The notes: a model not told the origin generated them from the sequence alone. DNA of 64,000 nt from Candidatus Wolfebacteria bacterium GW2011_GWE2_44_13 (GCA_001000675.1 LCHW01000001.1:68013-132012); one strand, 5' to 3'. Shown: positions 3,251 through 60,003, counted from the stretch's first letter. Translations and numbers: made by a program.

Positions 3251-4189
3251 ATGGAAATTACGAAACAAGAACCACAGATATTTGATACGGCTATTGTTGG
3301 CGCTGGTCCTGCTGGGCTTTCTGCCGCAGTGTACCTTTCTCGCTACGCGTTAAAGCCAATTGTTATTGGTGAGCTATTTGGCGGTACTGCCACGAAATCA
3401 CATGAAATAGGAAACTGGCTGGGGGATGAAAAAATAGCTGGATTTGATTTTGCAAAAAAGGCTATTGAACATGCAAAGAGCTACGGTGTTCCGTTTGAAG
3501 TCGCTCGTGTGCGCGGAGTTGAGAAAGAGGATCTTTTATTCGCACTCGAGTTAGATAATGGAACAATGGTGCATGCTCGATCTGTTTTGCTTGCTACTGG
3601 CACAGAGCATAGACATTTGAATATTCCAGGAGAGCAAGAATTTTCAGGGAAAGGCGTTTCTTTTTGTGCAACATGTGACGGGTTTTTCTTTGGAGATAAA
3701 ACAGTTGTGGTTGTTGGAGGAAGTGACAGCGCTGCTATCTCTGCGTTGTATCTCGCCGATATTGCTAAAAAAGTGTACGTAATTTATCGCGGAGAAGAAC
3801 TGCGGGCGGAACCGTTTTGGAAAAAGCGCATAGCAGAAAATGAAAAAATAGAAGTTGTCTATAATACAAATATTACTGAAATAAAAGGGGAGGCAACTGT
3901 CAGTGAAATTGTGCTTGATCGGGAGTATGATGGAGCTCAGTCAATTGCAGTGGATGGTGTATTTGTTGAGATAGGAGCTGACCCGAAGATTGATTTTGCC
4001 GAGGCACTACAACTACAGATTGATAATGAAGGATATGTCGTTGTTGATAAGGGCTGTATGACTTCGGCTGATGGCGTTTGGGCTGCGGGCGATATTACGA
4101 CAGGGTCTAATAAGTTTAAGCAAATTGTCACTGCCGCTTCTGAGGGAGCGATCGCCGCAAATGGAATACAGATGTGGTTGAAAAGATAA
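3251..4189 (+). CDS. trxB: Thioredoxin-disulfide reductase
   Basis: FAD-binding GAGPAGLSAA, redox-active CATCDG, and NADPH-binding GGSDSA motifs. Confidence 0.85.
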   Translation: MEITKQEPQIFDTAIVGAGPAGLSAAVYLSRYALKPIVIGELFGGTATKSHEIGNWLGDEKIAGFDFAKKAIEHAKSYGVPFEVARVRGVEKEDLLFALELDNGTMVHARSVLLATGTEHRHLNIPGEQEFSGKGVSFCATCDGFFFGDKTVVVVGGSDSAAISALYLADIAKKVYVIYRGEELRAEPFWKKRIAENEKIEVVYNTNITEIKGEATVSEIVLDREYDGAQSIAVDGVFVEIGADPKIDFAEALQLQIDNEGYVVVDKGCMTSADGVWAAGDITTGSNKFKQIVTAASEGAIAANGIQMWLKR

Positions 4190-4239
4190 TGGGTAAGAGA
4201 CAAGAGATGAGAGGTGAGAGATAGGGGGGGAAAAGAAAA

Positions 4240-4265
4240 GGCCGGCGTAAGCGCCGGCTTTTTGT
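4240..4265 (+). terminator. Rho-independent terminator
   Basis: gccggcg-taa-gcgccggc followed by tttttg. Confidence 0.7.
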
Positions 4266-4272
4266 TGAGGGA

Positions 4273-4581
4273 TTATTTACGTTCCCCGATTTGGTAGGAG
4301 ATGGCACCGTCATGGCAGTTAACGCTAATGACCGGCATTCCCGTAATTAGTCCGATGAATTCAGCGACTTCGAGCGCAATGTGTTGCATGTCATCGACAC
4401 TCATTGTGCCAGGGTTTGTAAAGATGTATTTACGACAACCCTCGAGTGTTTCGAGGTAGCTGTCTCCTGGTCTCCGGATGTACACGCCGTCGATGTCGTG
4501 CTTAACGACATCGCCTGTACGAATAGCCGTTTTCCCGAGGAGTGCTGTTTTAAACGCCGCCCTTGTCCGAATTGGCTTCAT
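4273..4581 (-). CDS. Hypothetical protein
   Basis: 102-aa ORF with a 4-nt start/stop overlap with the downstream zinc-ribbon gene (operon-like). No family recognised. Confidence 0.4.
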   Translation of the reverse strand: MKPIRTRAAFKTALLGKTAIRTGDVVKHDIDGVYIRRPGDSYLETLEGCRKYIFTNPGTMSVDDMQHIALEVAEFIGLITGMPVISVNCHDGAISYQIGERK

Positions 4582-5426: not shown

Positions 5427-7259
5427 ATGATGAAATTTTTAACCAAGAATATACTATGGGCTGTGGGAATCTTTTTTGTAATTGCGATGTTATTTTCGCT
5501 TGCATACAAAGAAACAAAAGAGCCGATACAGATGACGCTCGATCAGGTTGCAACGAAAATTAATGCAAGTGAAGTTTCACAACTTGTGGTTAGTGGAGAC
5601 GCGCTTGAAATTGAATTAAAAAATGGCGATAAGGGAGTCTCGAAAAAAGAAGCAGAAGCAGGACTTACAGAAACGCTCACAAATTACGGCGTTACTCCTG
5701 AAGCGCTGCAACAAATTAGCTTCTCGGTAAAAGATGAATCTGGATTTAAATTTTGGATGGCTGCATTGCTTCCAATCTTACTCCCCATCCTTATTATTGG
5801 CGTAATCTTCTTCTTTGTATTTCGCCAAGCAAAAGGTGGTGCGAACCAAGCGTTTATGTTTGGAAAGGCAAAGCTGAAAATGTTCACACCGTTTAAGGGG
5901 ACGGTTTCGTTTGAAGATGTTGCCGGATTGAAAGAAGCAAAACAGGAGTTGATGGAAGTTGTGGATTTCTTAAAAAATCCAAAAAAATATCTTGCAATGG
6001 GGGCGAAGATTCCTCGAGGAGTTTTGTTGCTCGGTGCACCAGGATGTGGAAAAACATTATTAGCACGAGCAGTTGCTGGACAAGCGGGCGTACCATTTTT
6101 CCATATATCTGCTTCTGAGTTTGTTGAAATGTTTGTTGGTGTTGGAGCTTCGCGTACACGTGATGCTTTTGAAACCGCTAAAAAGGCAGCTCCTTCTATT
6201 TTGTTTATTGATGAAATTGATGCGATAGGGCGAGAGCGTGGTTCGGGCATGGGCGGAGGACATGATGAGCGAGAACAGACACTCAACCAGATTCTTGTAG
6301 AAATGGATGGGTTTGAAAAGGACACCAATGTTATAGTGCTTGCGGCCACTAACCGACCAGATATTCTTGATGCAGCATTACTCCGCGCTGGGCGATTCGA
6401 TCGACGTGTTGTTGTAGACCTTCCGACGATTGAAGATCGGGAAGCCATCTTGGCAATTCATGGGCGAGGAAAGCCACTCGCAAAAGATGTTGATCTAAAA
6501 CAAATCGCTACGAGAACACCAGGATTCTCTGGAGCAGACTTAGAAAATATCATGAATGAAGCTGCTATTCTTGCGGCACGAAAAGGAGAGAAGACAATTA
6601 TTCAACTTGATTTGTATGAGGCAGTTGAAAAAGTTTTGCTTGGACCTGAACGAAAGAGCAAAGTTATTTCACAGCGAGAAAAAGAAATTACTGCATATCA
6701 TGAAGCAGGACATGCGCTTGTGGGGTCTTCGTTGAAGCATGCAGATCCGGTACATAAAATATCAATTATTGCTCGTGGACATGCGGGGGGGTATACATTG
6801 AAGTTGCCTACCGAGGAGATGTTCTTAAAAACGCGACAGCAATTCTTAGCGGAAATCGCAACGTTGTTCGGCGGCTATGTTGCTGAACAAGTTATGTTTG
6901 GTGACAACTCAACAGGTGCGTCAAACGATTTGCAGCGTGCATCAGATATGGCGCGCCGATTGGTTACGAAATACGGTATGAGTGATAAGCTTGGTCCGCA
7001 AACATTCGGGAAAACGCACGAGTTGATGTATCTCGGAAAAGAAGTTGGCAATGAAAAGAATTATTCCGAAAAGACCGCAACTGATATCGATGCAGAAGTA
7101 AAAGGTTTTATCGATCGTTCATATTTGGTTGCAAAAAAGATTGTCGCTTCACGAAAAGATGCACTTGAAGCAATCGCAAAACGCCTTATTGAAAAAGAGA
7201 CACTTGAGAAAGAAGAATTCGATGTTATGTTAAAGGAGCTGAAGGTGAAGAAGGCATAA
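5427..7259 (+). CDS. ftsH: ATP-dependent zinc metalloprotease FtsH
   Basis: N-terminal TM, Walker [12 protein letters not shown] region, and the HEAGHAL zinc motif. Confidence 0.95.
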
Positions 7260-7299
7260 ATGCGAGATGCGAGATGAGAGGTAAGAGATGAGGAATTAA

Positions 7300-7330
7300 A
7301 AAGCGGTTCGCCTTGGCGAACCGCTTTTTG
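7300..7330 (+). terminator. Rho-independent terminator
   Basis: gcggttcgcc-ttg-gcgaaccgc followed by tttttg. Confidence 0.7.
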
Positions 7331-7352
7331 AGTATCCCCAAGTTTTTAGTAT

Positions 7353-7576
7353 TGTCATTCCGGCCTATGCCTGCCTGCCGGTAGGCAGGAGCCGGAATCT
7401 AGTATTCCGCATTGTCATCCTGAGCTTGTCGAAGGATCTGTAGTATGTAAATCATATTCCTCGATAAACTCGGGATGACAGCGCTTCCGGATTGTCATCC
7501 CGTACACAGTTTACGCTGGGTTTATCGAAGTGATACGGGATCCAGGACCCTGTCATTCCCGCGGAGGCGGGAATCC
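7353..7576. repeat. Tandem array of four different hairpin repeats, each led by TGTCAT (7353-7400, 7413-7438, 7493-7543, 7551-7576)
   Basis: Each unit is TGTCAT + stem + loop + complementary stem + C, with unrelated stem sequences. The last unit is the canonical tgtcattcccgcggaggcgggaatc. Confidence 0.7.
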
Positions 7577-7907: not shown

Positions 7908-7980
7908 GCGCCTATAGCTCAGTTGGTAGAGCATCTCGCTTATACCGAGACGGTCCTAGGTTCGAGTCCTAGTGGGCGCA
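7908..7980 (+). tRNA. tRNA-Ile (anticodon TAT)
   Basis: GCGCCTA TA GCTC AGTTGGTA GAGC A TCTCG CTTATAC CGAGA CGGTC CTAGG TTCGAGT CCTAG TGGGCGC A folds as a clean cloverleaf with anticodon loop CUUAUAC. Confidence 0.8.
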
Positions 7981-7984
7981 CAGT

Positions 7985-11852: not shown

Positions 11853-14399
11853 ATGGGCCCTAAATTACTTGATAAACGGAAAAAGAAAGCTCTTAAGATT
11901 ATTAAAAAGCTGAAAGAGCTTTTTCCGGTTTCAAAAATTGCACTAAACTATTCCAATAATTGGGAGCTGCTCGTTGCGGTTGAACTGTCGGCACAATGCA
12001 CTGACAAAAAAGTGAATGAAGTAACGGAGATATTGTTTAAAAAATATAAAACATTGAATGATTACGTGCATGCTGATCCGCGTGCATTTGAAAAAGATAT
12101 TCATGCGACGGGGTTTTATCATAATAAAACGAAAAATATTCTTGCTGCGGCGAAGATGGTGCAAGGCCAATTTGGAGGAGTTGTGCCAAAGACGATGCAG
12201 GAAATGTTAGAGATTCCCGGGGTAGCGCGCAAGACGGCTAATGTTGTACTGGGAAGCGCGTATGGAGTTGTAGAAGGAATCGCGGTTGATACACATGTGA
12301 TACGACTCACGCGATTGTTAGGGCTTACAAGCGAATCGAACCCCGTAAAAATAGAGCGCGATTTAATGGAGATTTTACCGAAAGAAGAGTGGCTCGAATT
12401 CACGTATCGGTTGATCGATTACGGAAGGGCCTATTGCCCTGCTCGAGCACAAAAACTCTCTATAATCATCCCCCTCTTTCTCTTTTTATTACTACCGAAT
12501 AGTTCTTTTGCGCAGCAGCAGGTGTATTCGTATGATGCAATCAATACGACAATTACTGTTAACGGCGATGCAACGTTTACGGTTGAAGAGCAGCAATTGT
12601 TTAATTACGAGGCAGGAACGTTTCATCAAGGGTGGCGCGCTATTTCGCTTGATAAAATAAGCCGCATTACGGATGTGCAGGTTATTGATGGTGCAACAGG
12701 ACAACCATTACAACACAGTAGCCAACGGCTTAATAAAACCGATCCTGATAGCTGGGGAAAATATACAGGGTATACACAGGATGGGAATGTAAACATCGAA
12801 TGGTATTACGACCTTGCTAATACAAAGCACTTGTGGGTATTGCGGTATGTGGTGCACGGCGGGTTCTCGTTCTACAAAGAAAACGATCGATTATATTGGA
12901 ACGCATTAACTGACTATAGCAGTCCTATTGGACTCGCTTCTGTAAAAGTCTTATTCCCTGAGAATGCAGATCTATCTTCTATGCAGTTTGATGCGTATCG
13001 AGAAGATAGTTATGCGATAAATAAAATAGTACAGGGGAATAATAGTATCTATTTTGAAACTCCGTTTATTCAGCCATACGAAGCGTTTACCATAGACATC
13101 GCTTTTCCAAAAGGAATCATAAGTGAATCTGCATTTTGGAAAGAATGGCTTACTGCGTATTGGGGATACGTAGGCTCTGGTATTGCCGCTGTGCTTGGGG
13201 TATTGTTTTCATTATTGTATTGGTATCGCACGGAGCGCTATGGAAAAGGACGTGGCGTTATTATTGCGCAGTACGAGCCGCCGCAGCAATTGCGCCCAGC
13301 GATGGCCGAAGTTTTAGTTAAGGAAAAGATTACGGAAAAAACATGGCCGGCAACAATTATTGACCTTGCGGTTAGAGGGTATATTGCAATCAAAGAAGAG
13401 CCTGAAGATAAACTCGTTGTATTTATACGCCTTTCTCTTGCTGTGATTTTAGTGGGTATCTTAGGAGCTATTAGCGTCCTGGTGCTTTTTGTCGACGTTC
13501 CGTTTGAAGGGAGAATGCCGTTGGTTCTATTTATAGCGGCCCCAATCCTTGTCCTTATTATTGCTTATCGGAAGGAGGGCAGTATTAAAAAATCATTTGC
13601 ACCGAAGAGTTACATTTTAGAAAAAGTAAAGGAATACGAAAACGATCCTAGCCTTGAAGAGTATGAAGTTAAATTCCTGCGGATTATTTTTTCTGGCATC
13701 GACCTAGTAACTAAAGAAAAGAAAAACCATTTTTCGTTAAAAGAGATAAAAAAGAGCTCCTCGTCTCAGAGAGAGCTTGCGCGATTACTTAACCTTCTAA
13801 AGGATGATTTGTATAAGGAGACTGATAAAGACACAAAGGCATTCGAAAAAGCGATACATAAGGAAAAATATTTTATGTTTGTGCTGTTCGGCCTCACCTT
13901 TTTCTTCGCAATGCTTAATAAGATACAAATCATTGATTTGGAAAATCAGCTGCATTTCCTCGTGTTTGTGTGCGCCATTGTTGTAGCTGTTGTGATTGCA
14001 TTTATAAAATTTGAATCGCGGCTTTCGCATGAAGGATATCTCTTAAAAGAAGATTGGCTTGGGTTTAAGCTGTATTTAGAAACGGCAGAAAAATATCGTA
14101 TGCAGAATCTTACGCCTGATATTTTTGAAAAATATCTTCCGTACGCAATGATATTTGGTATTGAAAAAAAATGGGCAAAATCGTTTGAAGGTATACATAT
14201 GCAACCTCCGAGTTGGTACGGATCTTCTTCTGTCGGTATGGCTGCGGGGATTTCTTCTGGCACATCTTTTTCCCCAGTTGGTTTTAGCTCAAGTTTCTCG
14301 TCTTCTTTTTCAAGTGCCTTTGCGTCGGCAGGGGGAGGCGGGGGAGGAGGTGGATCTGCGGGCGGAGGAGGTGGAGGCGGAGGAGGTGGTGCGAGCTAG
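11853..14399 (+). CDS. Apparent in-frame fusion: endonuclease III-like HhH-GPD domain (aa 1-215, no FeS loop) + DUF2207 membrane protein with a C-terminal poly-Gly/Ser tail
   Basis: N-terminus is Nth-like (LLVAVELSAQCTDKKVN, GVARKTANVVL, AVDTHV). After ...DYGRAYCPARAQK it runs straight into a signal-peptide-like LSIIIPLFLFLLLPNSSFAQQ. TM helices follow, then WLGFKLYLETAEKYRMQ...FEKYLPYAMIFG and a SSSFSSSFSSAFASAGGGGGGGGSAGGGGGGGGGGAS tail typical of DUF2207. Confidence 0.6.
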   Translation: MGPKLLDKRKKKALKIIKKLKELFPVSKIALNYSNNWELLVAVELSAQCTDKKVNEVTEILFKKYKTLNDYVHADPRAFEKDIHATGFYHNKTKNILAAAKMVQGQFGGVVPKTMQEMLEIPGVARKTANVVLGSAYGVVEGIAVDTHVIRLTRLLGLTSESNPVKIERDLMEILPKEEWLEFTYRLIDYGRAYCPARAQKLSIIIPLFLFLLLPNSSFAQQQVYSYDAINTTITVNGDATFTVEEQQLFNYEAGTFHQGWRAISLDKISRITDVQVIDGATGQPLQHSSQRLNKTDPDSWGKYTGYTQDGNVNIEWYYDLANTKHLWVLRYVVHGGFSFYKENDRLYWNALTDYSSPIGLASVKVLFPENADLSSMQFDAYREDSYAINKIVQGNNSIYFETPFIQPYEAFTIDIAFPKGIISESAFWKEWLTAYWGYVGSGIAAVLGVLFSLLYWYRTERYGKGRGVIIAQYEPPQQLRPAMAEVLVKEKITEKTWPATIIDLAVRGYIAIKEEPEDKLVVFIRLSLAVILVGILGAISVLVLFVDVPFEGRMPLVLFIAAPILVLIIAYRKEGSIKKSFAPKSYILEKVKEYENDPSLEEYEVKFLRIIFSGIDLVTKEKKNHFSLKEIKKSSSSQRELARLLNLLKDDLYKETDKDTKAFEKAIHKEKYFMFVLFGLTFFFAMLNKIQIIDLENQLHFLVFVCAIVVAVVIAFIKFESRLSHEGYLLKEDWLGFKLYLETAEKYRMQNLTPDIFEKYLPYAMIFGIEKKWAKSFEGIHMQPPSWYGSSSVGMAAGISSGTSFSPVGFSSSFSSSFSSAFASAGGGGGGGGSAGGGGGGGGGGAS

Positions 14400-16908: not shown

Positions 16909-17454
16909 ATGGCAGGACATTCCCACGCAGCAAACGTAAAACATAAAAAGGCAGCAAACGATAAAAAACGGGCAAAAGTATTTTCCAAGCTTATTAAGGC
17001 TATCTCTATAGCTGCCCGTGACGAGGCAAATCCTCAGTTTAATCCAAGGCTTCGTACTGCTATTGATACTGCTGTCGAAAGCCAAGTACCAAAAGAAAAT
17101 ATCGATCGTGCAATTAAGAAAGCATCTGAGCCGGGGGAAGAACTTGAAGAACTTACAATGGAAGCCTATGGGCCAGAAGGTTCTGCGCTTATTATTACTG
17201 CGATTACCGATAATAAAAACAGAACAGTAAGTGAGGTGAAGTTGATTCTTAAAAAACAGGATGCTAAATGGGCTGACCCAGGGAGTGTGCTTTGGGCGTT
17301 TGAAAAAGATGGGGATGGATGGAACGCAAAGTTTCCGCAAGCTATTTCTGCAGAAGGAATGGAAAAATTAGAAACACTTATCGAGGCACTTGATGATCAT
17401 GATGATGTTGATGATATTTACGTGAATTGTAATATGTCAGAAGGGGAGGAGTGA
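16909..17454 (+). CDS. yebC: YebC/PmpR-family transcriptional regulator (short form)
   Basis: MAGHSHAANVKHKKAANDKKRAKVFSKLIKAI matches the YebC N-terminus [32 protein letters not shown]. 181 aa, shorter than canonical. Confidence 0.8.
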   Translation: MAGHSHAANVKHKKAANDKKRAKVFSKLIKAISIAARDEANPQFNPRLRTAIDTAVESQVPKENIDRAIKKASEPGEELEELTMEAYGPEGSALIITAITDNKNRTVSEVKLILKKQDAKWADPGSVLWAFEKDGDGWNAKFPQAISAEGMEKLETLIEALDDHDDVDDIYVNCNMSEGEE

Positions 17455-17504
17455 GAGATGGGGTATAAGAAATGACAATTCTTTAATAGAAGAAATATAT
17501 ATGT

Positions 17505-18154: not shown

Positions 18155-19237
18155 ATGAAATCATCAAAATCACTCTCAATACTCCTATCCGTTATTGTTA
18201 CTACACTTACTGTTGTCTTTATTGTATCTGCGGACAATTGGACTCCACCTGCTGGAGAGCCTACGGCAAATAACACACCTGCGCCTATTCATGTTGGAGG
18301 GAATGCCCAATCTAAGTCAGGAGGGCTTATTGTGGGGGCTGGACTTTCTGCTTCGCAAAATGCATTGATTGTTCCTACGGGGAATGTGCTTGTGGGGACT
18401 ATTAATGGGCAAACGGCTCCTAATGGAGGGGGTGGAAATGTGGTTGCAAATGATTTCTATATTACAAGTATCGGTAAATGGGTGAGTCAGCTCTCTACTA
18501 ATGCACCTTTTTCGCAGGGAACACAGGTGTTTAATGAGACTGGAACATTCACTGTTCCTGAAGGCGTATACTCAGTTGAGGTAACCGCTTGGGGTGGAGG
18601 GGGAGGAGGGTTAGCTGCCTGCTTCGAAGCAGACCGGAATTCGCGTGACACGGGTGGGTCTGGAGGAGGTGGCGGGGCGTGGGCAAAAAAGGTTATCGCT
18701 GTTACGCCTACGGTTACCTATGATGTGGTAGTTGGCGGAGGAGGGGCAGGAGGAATAAGAGGAGGAAGTCGTGGTTGTGCCACAGGGGGGTCTGGGGGAA
18801 AAAGTTCATTCGGCGCTGATTTGCTCGTCGTAAAAGGAGGGGGTGCTGCGTCTTATGATGGGGGTCCAAACAATGACATCCTGAGGGGTGGAGCGGGAGG
18901 GGCTGCTACTGCCGGGGACGGCGAATCTTTGGCTGGAGAAAATGGAGGAGATGCAGATGGATTACCAGAGGGTGCGAGAGGCGGATCTTCTCCAAATGGA
19001 GGGGCTAAAACATCAAGGTCAACTGGCGTGGGGTCTTCAGGCTTTACTCCAGGAGGTGGCGGAGGTGGCGGAGCACTAACTGTTTTGACAGCCGGCTATT
19101 ATAATTCTGTAGAGAATGCCGATGTCCCTGGGTACTACAACCAAGAATGGGTTGCTCCTACATATACTTATCATGTAGGAGGCGCCGGTGCAAAAGGTAA
19201 GGTGATCGTTACTTGGGGCGGTGCAGTAGCACCGTAG
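18155..19237 (+). CDS. Secreted Gly-rich protein, paralog A of the NWTPP/NNTPAPINVG N-terminal-domain family
   Basis: Signal peptide with AxA cleavage (VSA/DNW). The mature N-terminus DNWTPPAGEPTANNTPAPIHVGGNAQSKSGGLIVGAGL...ALIVPTGNV is shared with 19760 and 24430. The rest is Gly-rich (GGGGG runs). Confidence 0.55.
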   Translation: MKSSKSLSILLSVIVTTLTVVFIVSADNWTPPAGEPTANNTPAPIHVGGNAQSKSGGLIVGAGLSASQNALIVPTGNVLVGTINGQTAPNGGGGNVVANDFYITSIGKWVSQLSTNAPFSQGTQVFNETGTFTVPEGVYSVEVTAWGGGGGGLAACFEADRNSRDTGGSGGGGGAWAKKVIAVTPTVTYDVVVGGGGAGGIRGGSRGCATGGSGGKSSFGADLLVVKGGGAASYDGGPNNDILRGGAGGAATAGDGESLAGENGGDADGLPEGARGGSSPNGGAKTSRSTGVGSSGFTPGGGGGGGALTVLTAGYYNSVENADVPGYYNQEWVAPTYTYHVGGAGAKGKVIVTWGGAVAP

Positions 19238-19351
19238 GAAACGGTGTTTCTAATGAAGCCGGTGGCTTTAAAAAAGGAATCGGCGGAAAAGTTGCAAATG
19301 GAAAAGTTATTTTGCAATGGTAACTAGCTAGAAGCGTTTTACTGCAAAACA

Positions 19352-29097: not shown

Positions 29098-30117
29098 ATG
29101 AAAATAGCATTCTTTCAAATAGAAGACTGGGAAATAGAACACATCAAAGAGCAGTTAGCGGGGCATGAATTATTTTTTACAAAAGATAAGTTGTCTGCAG
29201 AAGCCCTTCCTGCGGATCGTGATTTTGATATTGTGTCCGTGTTTGTCGGTTCAAAAATAGACCAGGCGGTTCTTGCGGCCTTGCCGAATCTTAAGCTCGT
29301 TACGACGCGTTCAACCGGGTTTGATCATATCGACCTTGCATTAGCGCAAAGCATGAATATTGCTACTGGCTATGTGCCAGGGTATGGTGAAAATACTGTT
29401 GCTGAATTTGCATTCGGCTTAATTCTCGCGCTTTCTCGTAAGATTTATGAGTCAGTCGATCGGCTAAAAGAAACTGGAGTGTACTCGTACGTCGGATTGC
29501 GTGGGTTTGACCTACAAGGGAAAACACTTGGCGTTGTGGGTACAGGACGTATTGGGCAGCACGTTATTCGTATTGCAAAAGGGTTTAGTATGAATGTTAT
29601 TGCATACGATGCATTCCCAAAGCCAGAGCTTGCAACAGAACTTGGATTCACCTACGCCACGTTTGATGAGTTGCTTGGCAAGTCAGATGTCATTACGCTG
29701 CATGTTCCGTATCTTCCATCAACACACCATCTTATCAATATGGAAAATATTGGGAAGATTAAGAAAGGGGCATTGTTGGTAAATACTGCTCGCGGAGCAG
29801 TTGTGGATACCGCTGCATTGGTAAAAGCGCTTGCAGATGGAATCTTGGGAGGCGCAGGGCTTGATGTATTGGAAGAAGAAGGCGTGCTTGCGGATGAAAA
29901 AACATTGGTATTGTATGGACATCCAGAAGAGCATAATCTAAAAACAGTTTTGGAAAATCATGTGCTGATTGATTTGCCGAATGTGTTGGTAACACCGCAT
30001 AACGCGTTCAATACACAAGAAGCATTACAACGTATTCTTGATACAGATATCTGTAACATTCAGGAGTTTATTGGACAGGGAGTTGCGAAGTGTCCGATTC
30101 CAGTGGCGAAGGCATGA
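29098..30117 (+). CDS. D-isomer-specific 2-hydroxyacid dehydrogenase (D-lactate/glycerate dehydrogenase family)
   Basis: NAD-binding GVVGTGRIGQ; catalytic R...E...H region (TARGAVVD, VTPHNA). Confidence 0.8.
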   Translation: MKIAFFQIEDWEIEHIKEQLAGHELFFTKDKLSAEALPADRDFDIVSVFVGSKIDQAVLAALPNLKLVTTRSTGFDHIDLALAQSMNIATGYVPGYGENTVAEFAFGLILALSRKIYESVDRLKETGVYSYVGLRGFDLQGKTLGVVGTGRIGQHVIRIAKGFSMNVIAYDAFPKPELATELGFTYATFDELLGKSDVITLHVPYLPSTHHLINMENIGKIKKGALLVNTARGAVVDTAALVKALADGILGGAGLDVLEEEGVLADEKTLVLYGHPEEHNLKTVLENHVLIDLPNVLVTPHNAFNTQEALQRILDTDICNIQEFIGQGVAKCPIPVAKA

Positions 30118-30150
30118 GATATGAGATTAGAGATGTGAGATAAGGAAAAC

Positions 30151-30182
30151 AAACCCCGCTTCGAAAGAAGCGGGGTTTTATA
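30151..30182 (+). terminator. Rho-independent terminator
   Basis: aaaccccgcttcgaaagaagcggggttt followed by tat. Confidence 0.7.
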
Positions 30183-30200: not shown

Positions 30201-30578
30201 TTACTCGGCGGGTTTGGTGAGGACGAATTTGATCCACTCCTCGACACTCTCATTGAATATAGGCACGCTTGAGAAGAACTTATTGCTCGCGCGCAAGTCA
30301 GCGTGCCCTTCCCAGTGCACTGAGCCAAATAGAAGCATTGGGGTTACTTCCCCGACGAGGCCAGTTAATGTCCGGCGGAGCTCCTTTTGTGCGGGGTCTG
30401 AGGCTTCTGCAAAAATGACTGCCTCTGGCTGAAATACCGCGAGTACTCCCGCGAATTCTTCGGGAGAACCGGCTACTGGACGATGATGAACGATGAGCCC
30501 ACAGTTAAGTAGATATACCGCCAGCGAGGAACTCCCTGCTGAAATTCTGGGAATCCCAACAACAAGAATTCTTTTCAT
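30201..30578 (-). CDS. Hypothetical protein (receiver-like fold lacking the phospho-acceptor Asp pair?), GC-rich
   Basis: MKRILVVG... has a CheY-like start, but the DD pair is absent. Its GC content is clearly above that of flanking genes. Confidence 0.3.
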   Translation of the reverse strand: MKRILVVGIPRISAGSSSLAVYLLNCGLIVHHRPVAGSPEEFAGVLAVFQPEAVIFAEASDPAQKELRRTLTGLVGEVTPMLLFGSVHWEGHADLRASNKFFSSVPIFNESVEEWIKFVLTKPAE

Positions 30579-32326: not shown

Positions 32327-32436
32327 TAGAGAGATGAGGGTAGGACAGAGAGGTGCATTATTTGACATTATTTTATATATAGTATATAAAGTATCCAGCA
32401 CCATAAAATCTGTAGGAAAGAAGAGGAGTAGCAAGG

Positions 32437-40341: not shown

Positions 40342-41040
40342 GTGCATGGCAATAAAAAAATGTTTGTACAAAATTTAACTAGCACACTTTACGGTTCTCT
40401 GGCGAGTGTGTGGCTCGGAGTAATGGCATTCATGCCTAAATTTATTGGAGCACTTATCGTGTTGATTATTGGTTTGGTCATCGCTTCCGTTTTTGGATCG
40501 GTTATCGAACAGATCATCAAGTCTGTTAAGTTGGATGGATTGTTGAAGAAGATTGGCGTATCACAATACATCGATCGTTCTGGCGTACGTCTTGATTCAG
40601 GAAGATTCTTGGGTCGTATCGTATACTGGTTCTTTGCTATCGTTTCAATCTTGGCGGTATCTAATATCTTGGGATTGGACGTGTTCTCTGATTTCTTGAA
40701 GCAAGTACTATTGTATGTTCCGAATATCGTTGTTGCAGCATTGATCATGCTTGCTACTTTGGTAGTCGCACGATTTTCTAAGACATTGGTAGTAGCTTCT
40801 GTTGCAACTGCAAAATTGCACGCAGCAAATTTCCTCGGATCTTTTGTTTGGTGGATTATCGTTGTTTTCGGACTCATCACTTCGTTGATGCAGCTTGGAA
40901 TTAATGTATATGTCTTGCAGACAGTTATCACAGGTGTTGTTGCAATGCTTGCAATCGCAGGTGGCATCGCTTTCGGCCTTGGCGGAAAGGATTATGCCGC
41001 TTCTTTGATAGAAAAATTGCGAAAGGACACCGCAGAATAA
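40342..41040 (+). CDS. Membrane protein with conserved-TM-helix repeats (MscS-N-terminal-like TM_helix repeats)
   Basis: Two or three repeats of the hydrophobic-helix-plus-LGLD motif; 232 aa. Confidence 0.35.
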   Translation: MHGNKKMFVQNLTSTLYGSLASVWLGVMAFMPKFIGALIVLIIGLVIASVFGSVIEQIIKSVKLDGLLKKIGVSQYIDRSGVRLDSGRFLGRIVYWFFAIVSILAVSNILGLDVFSDFLKQVLLYVPNIVVAALIMLATLVVARFSKTLVVASVATAKLHAANFLGSFVWWIIVVFGLITSLMQLGINVYVLQTVITGVVAMLAIAGGIAFGLGGKDYAASLIEKLRKDTAE

Positions 41041-41090: not shown

Positions 41091-41169
41091 GGTGGACTGA
41101 AATACTATATACTGATTAGTATTAGGTATACGGTATACAGTATACGGTATACGAACTACCATTTTTCGT

Positions 41170-41547
41170 ATGGATATCTTCCTTATCTACCTCTTCGATC
41201 GTTTTATCTACCGCATCTCGCATTTCATGCGCCACTGGTATGTGGATAGTTTTGTGCATTACAGCCGATTTGTTATTGCGCGCTTGGAAGATATGGATCA
41301 AACAATTGCATTAAAAGTTACATGGCGAAATATATTCCAGCCATTGTACCAAGAGCGTAACGTTGCAGGGTATCTTCTCGGATTTATTTTTCGATCCATA
41401 CGATTGGTTATGGGGGGAGTTATTTATACGGTCGTGATTATTATAGCCGCCGCACTCTTCTTGGTATGGGCTGGTATTATCCCTTACATCTTGCTAAAAA
41501 TTGCTGGGCAGACACCCGCTGGGCTGATTTATAAATCAACACTATGA
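41170..41547 (+). CDS. Small membrane hypothetical protein; stop overlaps the ClpC-like start
   Basis: 125 aa with a TM helix near the C-terminus and an ATGA overlap at 41544. Confidence 0.35.
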   Translation: MDIFLIYLFDRFIYRISHFMRHWYVDSFVHYSRFVIARLEDMDQTIALKVTWRNIFQPLYQERNVAGYLLGFIFRSIRLVMGGVIYTVVIIIAAALFLVWAGIIPYILLKIAGQTPAGLIYKSTL

Positions 41548-44872: not shown

Positions 44873-45802
44873 GTGGTCCTTTTTTATAGCATTCCCAGTA
44901 CCTCTTATCTCAAGCCTCCCTTTTTGCTATACTTAATGCATATGGAGCAATTGCACGCACGGAAGTTAAAAGTTTTGGAAGAGACGGCGAATTTGATTCG
45001 ACAAGATATTGTTGAAATGCTTGAGCATGCTGGTTCAGGGCATAGCGCGGGGCCACTTGGTATGGCGGATATTTTTACAACATTATATTTTCATTTATTG
45101 AACCACGACCCAAAGAATCCCAATTGGGCTGATCGCGACCGCGTCGTACTTTCTAACGGACACATTTGCCCTGTTTTATATGCAACGCTTGCACGCGCAG
45201 GCTATTTCCCTGTTGAAGAATTAAAAACATTACGCAAACTTGGCTCTCGATTGCAAGGGCATCCGCATCGTGGTCCATTGCCTGGCGTTGAAACAACGTC
45301 TGGACCACTTGGATCTGGCTTGTCGCAAGCTATTGGTATGGCGCAAGCAGCAAAGCTTGATGGGAAAAAACATCGCATCTATTGTTTGATGTCAGATGGA
45401 GAACACAACGAAGGCAATACATGGGAAGCTATTTTGTATGCAGGGAAAAATAAGATGAGTAACGTCACTGCTATTATCGATCGAAATAATATTCAGATTG
45501 ATGGATTTACAGAAGATACGATGCCACTTGAACCGTTGCGCGATAAATATGAAGCATTTAATTGGCATGTTATTGATGTGAGTGGGCATAATTATATGGC
45601 GATCGCTGGAGCGGTTATGGAAGCGCAGGCAATTCATGAGCGACCGACGGTTATCATTGCCCATACGATCCCAGGGAAGGGAGTGAGCTTTATGGAAAAC
45701 AATTATGTTTGGCATGGCATGCCGCCCAATAAAGAGCAGGCTACGGCTGCTATTCGAGAGTTGCGAACACTGTGGGGGAAGATACGTGCCGAACATGATT
45801 AA
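44873..45802 (+). CDS. Transketolase, N-terminal (TPP-binding) subunit of a split transketolase
   Basis: GHSAGPLGMADIFTTLY...DRDRVVLSNGH and GSLGQGL-like SGPLGSGLSQAIGMA motifs. The probable start is at the internal MHMEQL (about 44936-44942). No C-terminal subunit gene is adjacent. Confidence 0.8.
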   Translation: MVLFYSIPSTSYLKPPFLLYLMHMEQLHARKLKVLEETANLIRQDIVEMLEHAGSGHSAGPLGMADIFTTLYFHLLNHDPKNPNWADRDRVVLSNGHICPVLYATLARAGYFPVEELKTLRKLGSRLQGHPHRGPLPGVETTSGPLGSGLSQAIGMAQAAKLDGKKHRIYCLMSDGEHNEGNTWEAILYAGKNKMSNVTAIIDRNNIQIDGFTEDTMPLEPLRDKYEAFNWHVIDVSGHNYMAIAGAVMEAQAIHERPTVIIAHTIPGKGVSFMENNYVWHGMPPNKEQATAAIRELRTLWGKIRAEHD

Positions 45803-56775: not shown

Positions 56776-56805
56776 TCGTTGCCGCTGAAAACGAAAAAAA
56801 TTAAA

Positions 56806-59800
56806 ATGAGCATAGTATTTAAAAAGCTTTCTATCGTTGCTCTCTCGCTCGCCCTTTTGGCAGGCGTTGTTTCAACTCCGGTTGCAAACGGCGCTACGAA
56901 CGAGGAATTACAGGCACAGATCTCTGCTATGACAGCGCAGATCAATGCCCTCCTCGCTCAGCTTGCTGGAACTCCGGCGACAGTAGCAACAACCCCAGCA
57001 ATGTCTTCATACACGTTTACCCGCAACCTCACTGTTGGGTCAACTGGTGCAGATGTTATGGAACTCCAGAAGTTCCTCGTTTCCTCAGGGCACTTGGTCC
57101 TTGCAAATCCAACCAACTATTTTGGTAACATGACCAAGGCAGCGTTGGCAAAGTTCCAGGCAGCTAATGGCATTTCGCCAGCAGTTGGATACTTCGGACC
57201 ACTCACCCGTACTTCAGTGAACGGAATGATGACCCCAGTAACTCCAGTAACTCCAGTTACTCCAGTAACTCCAGTAACTCCAGTAACTCCAGTTGTAACG
57301 TCTGGCGCAGTATCTCTTGCTTCTACTAACCCAGCAGCAGGATACATCGTAGCAGGACAGGCAGGAGCACGTTTGGCAGCTATCCAGTTCTCAGGAGCAG
57401 GATCAGTAACCAGCCTTGTTCTTAAGCGCACTGGTCTTTCGACCAATGACGTATTGACCAATGTCTACTTGTATGATGGAAATACTCGCATCACCGATGC
57501 AGCTTCTATCAATGCAGAAGGCGTAATCACTTTCAACAATCCTTCAGGGCTGTTCACAGCTCCTAAGACCGTTGAAGTTCGTGCAGATGTAACCTCGACC
57601 GCTACTGGACAGACCACAGTTGCAATTGAAGTTTCTTCATACACTATGTCAGGTGGAACTGCGACTGCAGTTACCGGCATAGTTGGAAACACGATGCAGA
57701 TGTCAACCGCAGCTTTGGCCACGGTTACTATGCAGACCAATAACCAAAATCCGAACAACACTACTTCCTTGAGCGTTAATGCTGGTACAGTTAACCAGAA
57801 CGTTTGGGATGTAACCTTGAACGTCGGAACTCGTGCAGTATCGTTGAAGGGACTTACATTTAAATATGTAGGATCAGCTTCATCTGATGCAGTAGGAAAC
57901 CTTGGCGTTTACGTTGACGGAGTAAAGGTTGGTTCAACTGCAACCGTAAATGCCATGGGCCTTGTTGCCTTTGACTTTACTGCAGCCCCAGTAACTCTTA
58001 CGACAGGAGCACGCACTATTCAGTTGCGCGGTGACTTCGTAAAGGGTTCGAACCGATCTGCTCAGTTCTACGTACAGAACTTGGCTGACTACATGATTGA
58101 AGATACGCAGGTTATGGGAGCATTTATTTCCCCAACCAGCGGAGCAAACGTCTATGGTTACAACTTTAACATCCAGTCAGGATCTATCGTTGTAAATCAG
58201 GATCAAACCTACTCAGCTACTCAGGTAGTTGGTGGATCTTCAAACGTTAACCTTGGTAAGTTTACCTTCAAGGCATATGGTGAAGATGTAAAAATCGAAA
58301 CCTTGGTCTTGACCCCGTCAGGAACTTTCACTGGATGGACTTCTGGTGCAAATATCCAGAATGTAACCTTGTATGTAAATGGTGCAGCTGTTGGTTCTTC
58401 ACAGAACTGGAGCCCAACCACTTCAGCAACACTTACTTTCAATCCAGGTGCAAACATGATCATTCCAGCTGCAGGAGTTTCTACTCTTGAAGTACGTGGA
58501 GATCTCCGCGATGGAGCTGGTGTGAACTACACTGGAGGAACCGTACAGGTTGACGTAACTTCCTTTGTTGGACGAGGACAGCAGTCACAGGCAACTGTTA
58601 CAAGCGCCTCTGCAACAGGACGAAACTTGACCATTGGTTCAGCCACAGTTAGCTTCTCAAAGACTGGTGGATTCTTGGGTTCAACTGTTACTCCAAATGC
58701 AAACGCAAAGATTGGTTCATTTACACTTTCAAACTCAAACTATGAGGATGTACGCGTAACGAACTTGTCTGTTGGCTTGCTCTTTGGTGCAGGTATGACC
58801 ATCACCAACGTTTCAAACCTTCGCGTATCTGACTCAGCAACTATCGTTGCTCAGCCAACCGCAGACAGCAACTTCTCTATGGATGTTGTTGTTCCTATGA
58901 ACTCAACTAAGGTATTCGAGATCACTGCTGACCTCGGTTCAACTGCCTCTACAACGGCAACTGTTACCGCAAATGCAACCTCTTCATACCGTGGCGTAAG
59001 TTCAGGAGTTTCTACAACTGCAGGTGCAGCTGGTGTAGCTATGACAGCTAACACCGCTACTCTTGTAGCAGCAGATGTTACCAAGTTGTCTTCATCAGCT
59101 CCTTCTCAACTTGTTGTTGGAGGAACTGTTATGCCAACCGTTATTTATAACGTAAAGTCATCAACTGCTCCAGTAACAATCACGGAATTGACCTTTGACG
59201 CCGCTACTTCAACCGATGCAATCACTGCTATTAAGGTTGGTGGTGTTACAAAGACAATCACTGCTTTGACTGGAAACGTTGTCACTGGTTTGAACATTGC
59301 TGTTCCAGCTGGTGCGTCAGGATTGAACATTCCAGTTGATGTTACTTTTGGAACTGTAAACACAAATGGTGGAATCGCTTCGCAGCCTACTGCGGTCGAC
59401 ACTATTACGCTTACTGCCGTTAAGTACACCAGTGGAAACACTACTGATACCGTGACCACAGCTTCTACTACGCTTGTTTCTAACGCTATGCAGCTTGTTG
59501 CTTCTAAGCCAAGCTTGACCGTTAATGGAACACAGCAGGGTGGATTGTTGCTTGGTTCTGAGAATAAGATTGGTGAAGTTACCGTTATTGCAGATGCAAA
59601 GGGTGACATCAAGTTGAATCTCTTGACATTCAATATTGGATACTCAGGATTCTCAACTGGTCCAGCTCTTTCAGGTGTTCGCATCGCAGATGGTTCAACA
59701 ACTATCAGCGGAACAACTGCTACGACAACAACGTCAACGACCTCACCAGTTATTACTGTTGACTTCGGTGATGCCGCAACCAGCAGCGATGGATACTCTA

Positions 59801-60003
59801 TCCCAGCTGGAACCTCGAAGACCTTTAGCCTCTTCGCAACCAACACTGGTGGCGTAGTATCTTCAGGTGCAACTGCTGCAGTTTCTGCACAGGTGCAAGG
59901 TGCTGCATTGTTTAAGTGGGATGATGTAAACGGAGGTGGGCTCGGTTTGACCGCTGCTAACATCTACAACTTCCCAACACAGAGCTACTCAGTACGACAA
60001 TAA
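56806..60003 (+). CDS. Giant cell-surface protein: signal peptide, coiled coil, peptidoglycan-binding domain (PG_binding_1-like), (TPV)x7 linker, and roughly 850 aa of Thr/Ser/Gly/Val/Ala-rich beta-rich repeats (S-layer/adhesin-like)
   Basis: Probable start at the ATG at 56806 (MSIVFKKLSIVALSLALLAG, a signal peptide); the track ORF begins at the TTG at 56779. FTRNLTVGSTGADVMELQKFL....MTKAALAKFQAANGISPAVGYFGPLT matches the PG-binding domain. Nine-bp tandem repeats actccagta x7 sit at 57235-57297. Confidence 0.6.
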   Translation: MSIVFKKLSIVALSLALLAGVVSTPVANGATNEELQAQISAMTAQINALLAQLAGTPATVATTPAMSSYTFTRNLTVGSTGADVMELQKFLVSSGHLVLANPTNYFGNMTKAALAKFQAANGISPAVGYFGPLTRTSVNGMMTPVTPVTPVTPVTPVTPVTPVVTSGAVSLASTNPAAGYIVAGQAGARLAAIQFSGAGSVTSLVLKRTGLSTNDVLTNVYLYDGNTRITDAASINAEGVITFNNPSGLFTAPKTVEVRADVTSTATGQTTVAIEVSSYTMSGGTATAVTGIVGNTMQMSTAALATVTMQTNNQNPNNTTSLSVNAGTVNQNVWDVTLNVGTRAVSLKGLTFKYVGSASSDAVGNLGVYVDGVKVGSTATVNAMGLVAFDFTAAPVTLTTGARTIQLRGDFVKGSNRSAQFYVQNLADYMIEDTQVMGAFISPTSGANVYGYNFNIQSGSIVVNQDQTYSATQVVGGSSNVNLGKFTFKAYGEDVKIETLVLTPSGTFTGWTSGANIQNVTLYVNGAAVGSSQNWSPTTSATLTFNPGANMIIPAAGVSTLEVRGDLRDGAGVNYTGGTVQVDVTSFVGRGQQSQATVTSASATGRNLTIGSATVSFSKTGGFLGSTVTPNANAKIGSFTLSNSNYEDVRVTNLSVGLLFGAGMTITNVSNLRVSDSATIVAQPTADSNFSMDVVVPMNSTKVFEITADLGSTASTTATVTANATSSYRGVSSGVSTTAGAAGVAMTANTATLVAADVTKLSSSAPSQLVVGGTVMPTVIYNVKSSTAPVTITELTFDAATSTDAITAIKVGGVTKTITALTGNVVTGLNIAVPAGASGLNIPVDVTFGTVNTNGGIASQPTAVDTITLTAVKYTSGNTTDTVTTASTTLVSNAMQLVASKPSLTVNGTQQGGLLLGSENKIGEVTVIADAKGDIKLNLLTFNIGYSGFSTGPALSGVRIADGSTTISGTTATTTTSTTSPVITVDFGDAATSSDGYSIPAGTSKTFSLFATNTGGVVSSGATAAVSAQVQGAALFKWDDVNGGGLGLTAANIYNFPTQSYSVRQ

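Follow-up and report, generated by a model that had tools for sequence, protein, structure and literature searches.

Tandem GAG heptamers between stop codon and terminator of Candidatus Wolfebacteria genes keep a conserved 7-nt register

Introduction

Heptanucleotides are the most abundant class of long simple-sequence repeats (SSRs) in many bacteria and polymerase slippage has been proposed to generate them, as Mrazek (2007) is reported in PMC4679880 and PMC4692102. Heptamers have been known since 1990 from the cyanobacterial STRR sequences (Mazel et al. 1990, as cited in PMC4679880 and PMC4692102), and the families described include, besides these, TAACTGA of Beggiatoaceae and GGGAATC of Xanthomonas (PMC4679880; PMC4692102; bioRxiv 2022.06.06.494920). 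Both the function of these repeats and the reason for a 7-nt unit are unsettled (PMC4679880, PMC4692102). Here we have analysed a stretch of 64 kb (hereafter the window; about 12% of the genome) from Candidatus Wolfebacteria bacterium GW2011_GWE2_44_13 (LCHW01000001.1:68013-132012), a groundwater bacterium of the Candidate Phyla Radiation (CPR), in which tandem heptamers of the form GAG-R-T-N-N occupy the 3′ untranslated region (3′-UTR) of trxB, ftsH and a dehydrogenase gene. Our search of the literature found no report of such repeats for CPR or Wolfebacteria.

As in the long heptanucleotide SSRs, the units of the Wolfebacteria arrays are arranged head-to-tail, intergenic and over-represented, with a variable copy number and a lineage-specific abundance. 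They differ from them in being short (4-9 units) and imperfect, in their GAG core, in their fixed orientation and position between stop codon and terminator, and in their CPR host. The TAACTGA repeats of marine Beggiatoaceae (MacGregor 2015, PMC4679880) also form short arrays (2-6 copies) with a fixed orientation at many genes and adjoin the gene boundary. Their host genome likewise has few Shine-Dalgarno (SD) sequences, and they have been put forward as binding sites of a post-transcriptional factor. Those repeats, however, are near-perfect copies located directly upstream of start codons (PMC4679880), whereas the GAGRT arrays have a different unit and are located directly downstream of stop codons. 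Some of the G-quadruplex heptamers GGGAATC/GGGGAYT of Xanthomonas and Nostoc occur as inverted pairs (Rehm et al. 2015, PMC4692102). In contrast to these, GAGRT units contain no G-runs and cannot form a quadruplex, the only G-rich sequence being a G7 run adjacent to one array (4224-4230).

Fixed spacing of short elements is also a property of the targets of two RNA-binding proteins. The targets of Bacillus TRAP consist of (G/U)AG-N2-3 repeated 9-11 times and those of HutP of UAG-N4 repeated three times, in two such blocks; both are found in 5′ leaders, where control is antiterminator-based. Like the arrays described here, they present a purine-rich triplet at fixed spacing, with free spacers, in unstructured RNA beside an intrinsic terminator, and the period of HutP sites is exactly the same 7 nt. 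Unlike them, our arrays are located 3′ of the coding region and have no alternative structure, and a GAG followed by a 4-nt spacer fits neither protein. At the level of DNA, the ribbon-helix-helix repressor omega of pSM19035 binds cooperatively, one unit per dimer, to WATCACW heptads at promoters and the centromere of Firmicute plasmids. Omega heptads, too, follow one another without gaps every 7 bp, as direct or inverted repeats, but the arrays described here are chromosomal, strand-biased and located at 3′ ends. AYCTC, the reverse complement of GAGRT, resembles the ATCAC core of the omega heptads.

Results

GAG heptamer arrays lie between stop codon and terminator of three genes

A sequence-only reading of the window had proposed a purine-rich motif directly after the stop codons and before the terminators of several plus-strand genes, with five examples. 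At three of these sites the motif is real, but instead of one fixed 22-mer we found four units of 7 nt, GAG-R-T-N-N, in an imperfect tandem array. The first array follows the thioredoxin reductase gene trxB (3251-4189, + strand; Pyr_redox_2 by Pfam in the list of open reading frames, ORFs), whose TAA stop codon is at 4187-4189. It consists of the units GAGACAA GAGATGA GAGGTGA GAGATAG (4197-4224, + strand) and is preceded, from position 4190, by the degenerate unit TGGGTAA. A G7/A-rich linker and a bidirectional intrinsic terminator come next (4225-4266; stem 4241-4247/4252-4258 with A- and T-tracts; -21.3 kcal/mol, z = -4.6), the terminator being common to a convergent gene that encodes 102 aa (4273-4581). 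The second array, GAGATGC GAGATGA GAGGTAA GAGATGA (7264-7291, + strand), lies between the TAA stop codon (7257-7259) of ftsH (5427-7259, + strand) and an intrinsic terminator (7298-7329, + strand) that has perfect 15-nt arms when the A/T tracts are counted; if read in the ATGCGAG phase, this repeat starts at 7260. The third one, GAGATAT GAGATTA GAGATGT GAGATAA (30116-30143, + strand), follows a D-2-hydroxyacid dehydrogenase gene (29098-30117, + strand) and its first unit overlaps the TGA stop codon (30115-30117); the bidirectional intrinsic terminator at 30151-30178 is common to a convergent gene (30201-30578). Pfam confirmed the identity of the three upstream genes.

At each of the three sites the array begins 0-7 nt past the stop codon, on the sense strand, and ends 7-16 nt 5′ of a strong hairpin followed by a T-tract. 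Each array ends in GG, to which an A-rich linker is joined. All of them are non-coding, since they are located between ORFs, and folding predicted that they stay unpaired beside the terminator hairpin. No two units are alike within the trxB or the dehydrogenase array, and the ftsH array contains GAGATGA twice. Since the units within arrays differ, these are not young perfect repeats. Most genes of the window, including highly conserved ones, carry no array. An attenuator or antiterminator role was discarded, the arrays being predicted as unpaired and not competing with the terminator stem. DNA uptake sequences, Chi and KOPS-type polar words were also discarded, given a density of 3 per 64 kb and the tandem architecture. 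With regard to the sequences around the arrays, the G7 run at 4224-4230 adjoins the trxB array, and G-runs likewise flank arrays in two related loci, L131 (GGGAGGGGGGAGGGGAAGG, 3780-3805) and L130 (7013-7024); the run of L131 has four G-tracts and might in principle form a G-quadruplex.

Comparison with chance expectation supported the three sites. When up to 3 mismatches were allowed, the 19-mer core of the motif as first read, GAGATGAGAGGTRAGAGAT, matched the window 4 times where 0.02 matches were expected. Four GAGRT units in 7-nt phase (≤3 mismatches) were found three times, always on the + strand, the expectation being 0.025-0.04. Tandem Repeats Finder returned a period of 7 at all three sites. 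At lag 7, a self-similarity scan of the window detected four 4-unit arrays, of which the fourth consists of another heptamer (GGTATAC x4); lags 5, 6, 8 and 10-12 yielded no such array. In an Rfam 15 search, no match overlapped the arrays at the gathering threshold or at E ≤ 5. In contrast, the two remaining sites that had been proposed, after yebC and rpiB, could not be upheld. The yebC site (17446-17466, + strand) satisfies just a loose definition (3 units, ≤3 mismatches) that chance fulfils 3.4 times per strand, and two of its units are coding, while the rpiB site (32329-32353, + strand) falls short even of that definition and is located downstream of the terminator, not before it. The trxB, ftsH and dehydrogenase sites, on the other hand, had been placed correctly to within a few bases. 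The idea of a recurrent, conserved 3′-UTR element of several plus-strand genes was thus borne out at three sites of the window and, as described below, in relatives; the accompanying suggestion of a remnant of yet another small repeat came near the truth, as the element is a tandem heptanucleotide repeat family.

GAG is maintained every 7 nt at orthologous sites

We then compared the syntenic loci of several Wolfebacteria lineages. The TrxB protein of the window was found unchanged on a groundwater (Rifle) contig of 541 kb, and the nearest named homologues of TrxB belong to GW2011_GWC2_39_22 (93% identity) and GWE1_48_7 (78%), both Candidatus Wolfebacteria. With respect to the window, 10-15% of four-fold degenerate sites differed in L124 and L152, which represent the GWC2_39_22 lineage, and 62-69% in the other lineages, meaning that these sites are saturated. 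An array was present at the same site after trxB in 5 lineages, after ftsH in 3 and after a fourth gene, ppa, in 2. The trxB array reads GAGGTTA GAGGTGC GAGATGT GAGATAA in L124, GAGGTAA GTGAATA GAGGTAA GAGATGT GAGAAAT in L127 and GAGATGA GAGAGTC GAGATAA GAGACAC GAGAAAT in L131; in L130 it has 6 units and has been pushed downstream by the insertion of ∼12 units of another heptamer, GGTAT-NN. The ftsH array has 4 units both in the window and in L130/L161, and 5 of its 28 positions differ, none of them in GAG, at a four-fold divergence of 63%. In L131 it comprises 9 units, the same four plus five more, and in L127 one unit is kept. The ftsH terminator hairpin has orthologues in L124 and L130.

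Nucleotide variation was distributed very unevenly along the unit. In the alignment of the trxB array from 4 lineages, 1 out of 12 GAG columns varied, compared to 13 out of 16 of the other array columns (Fisher p = 3e-4) and to 95 out of 107 four-fold columns of trxB (p = 1e-8 versus the GAG columns). Pairwise comparison of the ftsH array (window versus L130) and the ppa array (L152 versus L161) gave 24/24 identical GAG positions and 20/32 identical positions elsewhere. A logo of 41 non-redundant units showed G in 41, A in 40, G in 41, a purine in 41 (28 A, 13 G) and T in 33, followed by two positions (6 and 7) that carry just 0.4-0.5 bits. The 23 units ascertained by orthology alone produced the same pattern. 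Overall, GAG is nearly invariant every 7 nt at orthologous sites whose synonymous surroundings are saturated, while the other four positions vary. Recent horizontal transfer was rejected as the cause of this conservation because four-fold sites in the adjoining coding sequences are saturated.

These results bear on the possibility that the arrays are neutral or selfish SSRs, made by slippage that favours 7-nt units and surviving only in harmless spacers, with no sequence-specific function. The arrays do belong to the bacterial heptanucleotide SSR class: they have a period of 7, exceed chance, are non-coding and change in copy number, although they lack the near-identical units of a young SSR. 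Whole units and whole arrays have been gained and lost as expected from replication slippage. Consistent with a neutral origin, tandem arrays of the window occur at lag 7 only, the ftsH site has 0, 4 or 9 copies, gains and losses separate genomes that are just 10-15% diverged at four-fold sites, several unrelated heptamer units are found together in the same lineages (in L130 as mosaics with MITE-like repeats; MITE, miniature inverted-repeat transposable element), and >120 GAGAT-type arrays are found across many phyla in all contexts. The abundance of heptamers and the slippage proposal in the literature (Mrazek 2007, as relayed in PMC4679880 and PMC4692102) point in the same direction. However, neutral decay should affect all seven positions equally, yet GAG is nearly invariant and positions 4-7 vary; concerted evolution driven by slippage should homogenise the spacers, yet the units within the window arrays mostly differ; and arrays have been kept at the same sites in lineages whose synonymous divergence is saturated. 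As decay and slippage homogenisation would both treat the seven positions alike, GAG appears to be selected in a 7-nt register, and we regard purely neutral repeats as a rather unlikely, if serious, explanation. The signature of position-specific purifying selection that we infer on GAG is a new point with respect to known heptamers.

Some other features of these loci deserve mention. The first 601 residues of the FtsH product are 100% identical to those of the GWC2_39_22 lineage (tblastn; window 5427-7259 versus L124 12167-13999), while identity falls to 93% in TrxB, encoded 1.2 kb away; four-fold sites have diverged by 10% in ftsH and by 15% in trxB. Other contigs that encode this very TrxB match the window at 100% and are hence uninformative about copy-number variation at the strain level. 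The ENA contig L121, otherwise a 100% match to the window, has 48 extra bases (19202-19249) in a DUF2207 gene relative to window position 12451, an in-frame length variant.

Inverted partners follow the ppa arrays of two lineages and none of the window arrays

In L152 and L161, the ppa array consists of 4-5 GAGRT units followed by four inverted AYCTC units, which together would fold into hairpins of -27.8 kcal/mol (L152, 8786-8859) and -30.8 kcal/mol (L161, 17609-17693) made of 5-bp helices with internal loops of 2 nt between them. Such structures would be expected if GAGRU served to pair with AYCUC, either in cis, as a palindrome like those of MITE or repetitive extragenic palindromic (REP) elements or as an unconventional terminator, or in trans, the window arrays being surviving 5′ arms. 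The restriction of position 4 to A or G is what a position opposite U would show. In addition, among the matches listed from other phyla, an inverted partner occurred downstream of 21/125 arrays and upstream of 0/125, with the purine arm always 5′; most arrays with a partner belonged to Chloroflexota. At the three window arrays, on the contrary, we found no inverted partner within 250 nt and no inverted-arm hairpin, and an ordinary G+C-rich terminator follows each of them. In each of the four lineages inspected (window, L124, L127 and L131), the trxB array stands alone, and the z-score of the L152 hairpin against shuffled sequences is modest (-2.7). We therefore consider pairing improbable as the reason for the arrays.

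A different palindromic family, ATTGTCATTCC...GGAATC, was also detected (15 matches versus 2.7 expected; window positions 7351-7501, 49237, 49607, 56216, 60573, 60918 and others). This MITE/REP-like family is usually located just 3′ of terminators; in L130 and L131 it is found beside heptamer arrays as well.

Orientation and position of the arrays with respect to genes

The ≥3-unit GAGRT matches found in ∼255 kb of partly redundant Wolfebacteria loci, 20 in total, were all on the sense strand, the exceptions to this rule being the inverted arms of the two hairpins and one borderline site. This orientation is relevant to whether the element acts as DNA. A strict 7-bp period with a 5-bp conserved core could correspond to double-stranded heptads for a small cooperative DNA-binding protein of the omega/ribbon-helix-helix type, working as a roadblock, nucleoid or partition site, and two sites described below, the GGTATAC array at 41125-41153 and the one at 44898-44918, are in promoter regions. 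Nevertheless, the GAGRT arrays occupy 3′ ends instead of promoters, in two cases the space between convergent genes. They invariably lie on the sense side, 5′ of the terminator, and have been freely gained and lost, and among the window genes no ribbon-helix-helix gene was seen near them. A DNA-level heptad site thus seems very unlikely. A link to the convergent small genes was also rejected: their products of 102 and 125 aa are not related to each other, Pfam matched neither of them, and L131 lacks the 102-aa gene but keeps the array.

The vicinity of the stop codon had also led to the suggestion of a stop-context or ribosome-recycling signal, in which GAGGUGA would pair with the 16S rRNA 3′ end to hold or release the post-termination ribosome, or the arrays would supply back-up stops. 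GAGGT is present in 7/8 arrays and GAGGTGA in that of trxB, the window arrays contain stop codons in all three frames, and arrays begin at the stop codon or a few nt from it. Against SD mimicry, the 25 nt upstream of 66 window ORF starts are AT-rich and almost devoid of SD sequences (the 16S 3′ end is outside the window), and the dehydrogenase array contains no GAGG. Against a stop signal, the conserved part is GAG and not the stop-forming T-R-R, L124 and L131 lack a stop in one frame, the distance to the stop codon varies, most window genes do without an array, and the nearest relative has lost the one of ftsH. Of all the explanations considered, we give this one the least credit. Mini-ORFs (such as ATG AGA GGT GAG AGA TAG) and extensions by stop read-through exist in the window and are not conserved in L124, L127 and L131; mini-ORFs are by-products, because GAGATGA contains both ATG and TGA. 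As a separate observation, Bacteroidota and Cyanobacteria, two phyla that are rich in heptamers too, likewise have AT-rich initiation regions.

Other heptamer families and GAGAT-type arrays in other phyla

The second heptamer family of the window, GGTATAC GGTATAC AGTATAC GGTATAC (41125-41153, + strand), lies between the terminator of the gene at 40342-41040 and an ATG at 41170. The presence of GGTATAC x4 means that heptamer arrays are here a class rather than one motif. The GGTAT-NN family is found after trxB in L130 (the ∼12 units mentioned above) and after another gene in L161. More generally, L130, L131 and L161 carry the further families GGTAT-NN, N-ATAACC and AACCTAY. These follow stop codons or are found between a tRNA and csoR, at times as mosaics with MITE-like palindromes. 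A borderline array of 3 units, GAGGCTT GAGATAA GAGGTAC (44898-44918, - strand; 0.05 expected per strand), is antisense and located in the promoter region of a transketolase-like gene that starts at 44936.

To place the arrays in a wider context, we scanned one genome per species for GAGAYNNGAGATNNGAGRTNNGAGAT, which gave at least 120 loci. Among the matches listed, GAGAT-type arrays belonged mostly to Chloroflexota, Planctomycetota, Bacteroidota, Cyanobacteria, Gemmatimonadota, Acidobacteriota and CPR, and were rare in Proteobacteria; in these genomes they were usually longer (up to 26 units) and more perfect than in the window.

Two further features of the window were recorded. A 9-nt tandem repeat, CCAGTAACT x6.6 (57235-57293), is an in-frame coding repeat within an ORF of 1074 aa (56779-60003), and ARAGORN calls a tRNA-Ile with anticodon TAT at 7908-7981, an unusual bacterial way of reading AUA.

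Discussion

Taken together, the arrays look like a new, CPR-specific member of the known intergenic heptanucleotide repeats, made by slippage and with GAG held by selection. Our explanation is that, in a subset of genes of some Wolfebacteria, (GAG-R-U-N-N) x 4-9 would be transcribed as unstructured mRNA between the stop codon and the terminator hairpin and read in 7-nt register by some factor. The most likely reader would be an oligomeric or cooperative single-strand RNA-binding protein that takes one GAG per subunit, following the logic of TRAP and HutP. By coating the 3′-UTR immediately before the terminator, the putative binder might affect 3′-end formation or mRNA stability. That the GAG arrays are 3′-UTR sites for such an oligomeric reader is the interpretation we favour, tentatively and at a little under an even chance. 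A more specific version, in which they would be cis sites of a ring- or filament-forming protein that tunes terminator read-through or transcript stability in a regulon of trxB, ftsH, ppa and ldhA-like genes, is rather doubtful.

The likeness to TRAP and HutP does not go beyond this logic. As regards TRAP, the spacer of 4 nt, the 4-9 units and the location 3′ of the ORF do not correspond to its targets, and no TrpBP family was found among the window genes. HutP sites match in spacing, but the triplet of the arrays is GAG in 40/41 units and never UAG, and it is sited after the ORF. CsrA/RsmA, whose sites have GGA in hairpin loops or as A(N)GGA, does not fit either: GGA is present only at the 3′ edge of two window arrays, outside any loop, and the CsrA family is missing among the window genes. 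The sequence-only reading had advised looking for CsrA or Hfq, and neither family is encoded in the window. Its proposal of a binding site for a post-transcriptional regulator is still the best functional reading, because the 7-nt spacing of GAG has been kept across saturated divergence; no such regulator was found among the window genes.

Several observations argue against a reader of this kind. The genes of the window, which covers about 12% of the genome, include neither CsrA, Hfq, HutP and TRAP nor any further family of small RNA-binding proteins. The arrays are dispensable: in L124, the nearest relative, a clean 27-nt gap before the orthologous terminator replaces the ftsH array; the window itself has no ppa array, its ppa-clpP spacer being just 26 nt; and the dehydrogenase array, identical in L152, is absent from the 85-89% relatives L155 and L156 and is hence lineage-specific. 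No heptamer arrays were found in ∼35 kb of L159/L160 (TrxB 79%) and of L156 (dehydrogenase 89%), probably of the same lineage. Heptamers with other cores occupy comparable places and form mosaics with MITE-like palindromes in L130, which fits a generic proliferation of repeats, and the GAGAT-type arrays of other phyla show, among the matches listed, every orientation to genes, often abutting a gene end. Finally, there are four independent sites only, all 3′ of genes on the same strand, and for this reason the sense-strand bias is inseparable from a replication-strand bias.

As to the distribution of arrays among relatives, the array-free L156, L159 and L160 come from samples ERZ27237563/87, and arrays seem to be all-or-none per genome; L158, a 61% relative, has no heptamer arrays either.

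The present results add to heptamer repeats a CPR lineage with tiny genomes, in which non-coding DNA is at a premium, and a context that is new for them in such a lineage, namely a fixed 3′-UTR position on the sense strand from stop codon to terminator. The GAG signature turns the question of why heptamers into a testable one about a reader with a 7-nt register. If the contrast between presence and absence of arrays holds genome-wide, phylogenetic profiles could point to the binder or to the enzyme that generates the repeats. If the arrays are neutral, they would be another repeat family to mask when CPR genomes are annotated. If, on the other hand, a ring- or filament-forming reader does act at mRNA 3′ ends, the unexplained heptamer repeats of bacteria may be protein-binding arrays more generally.

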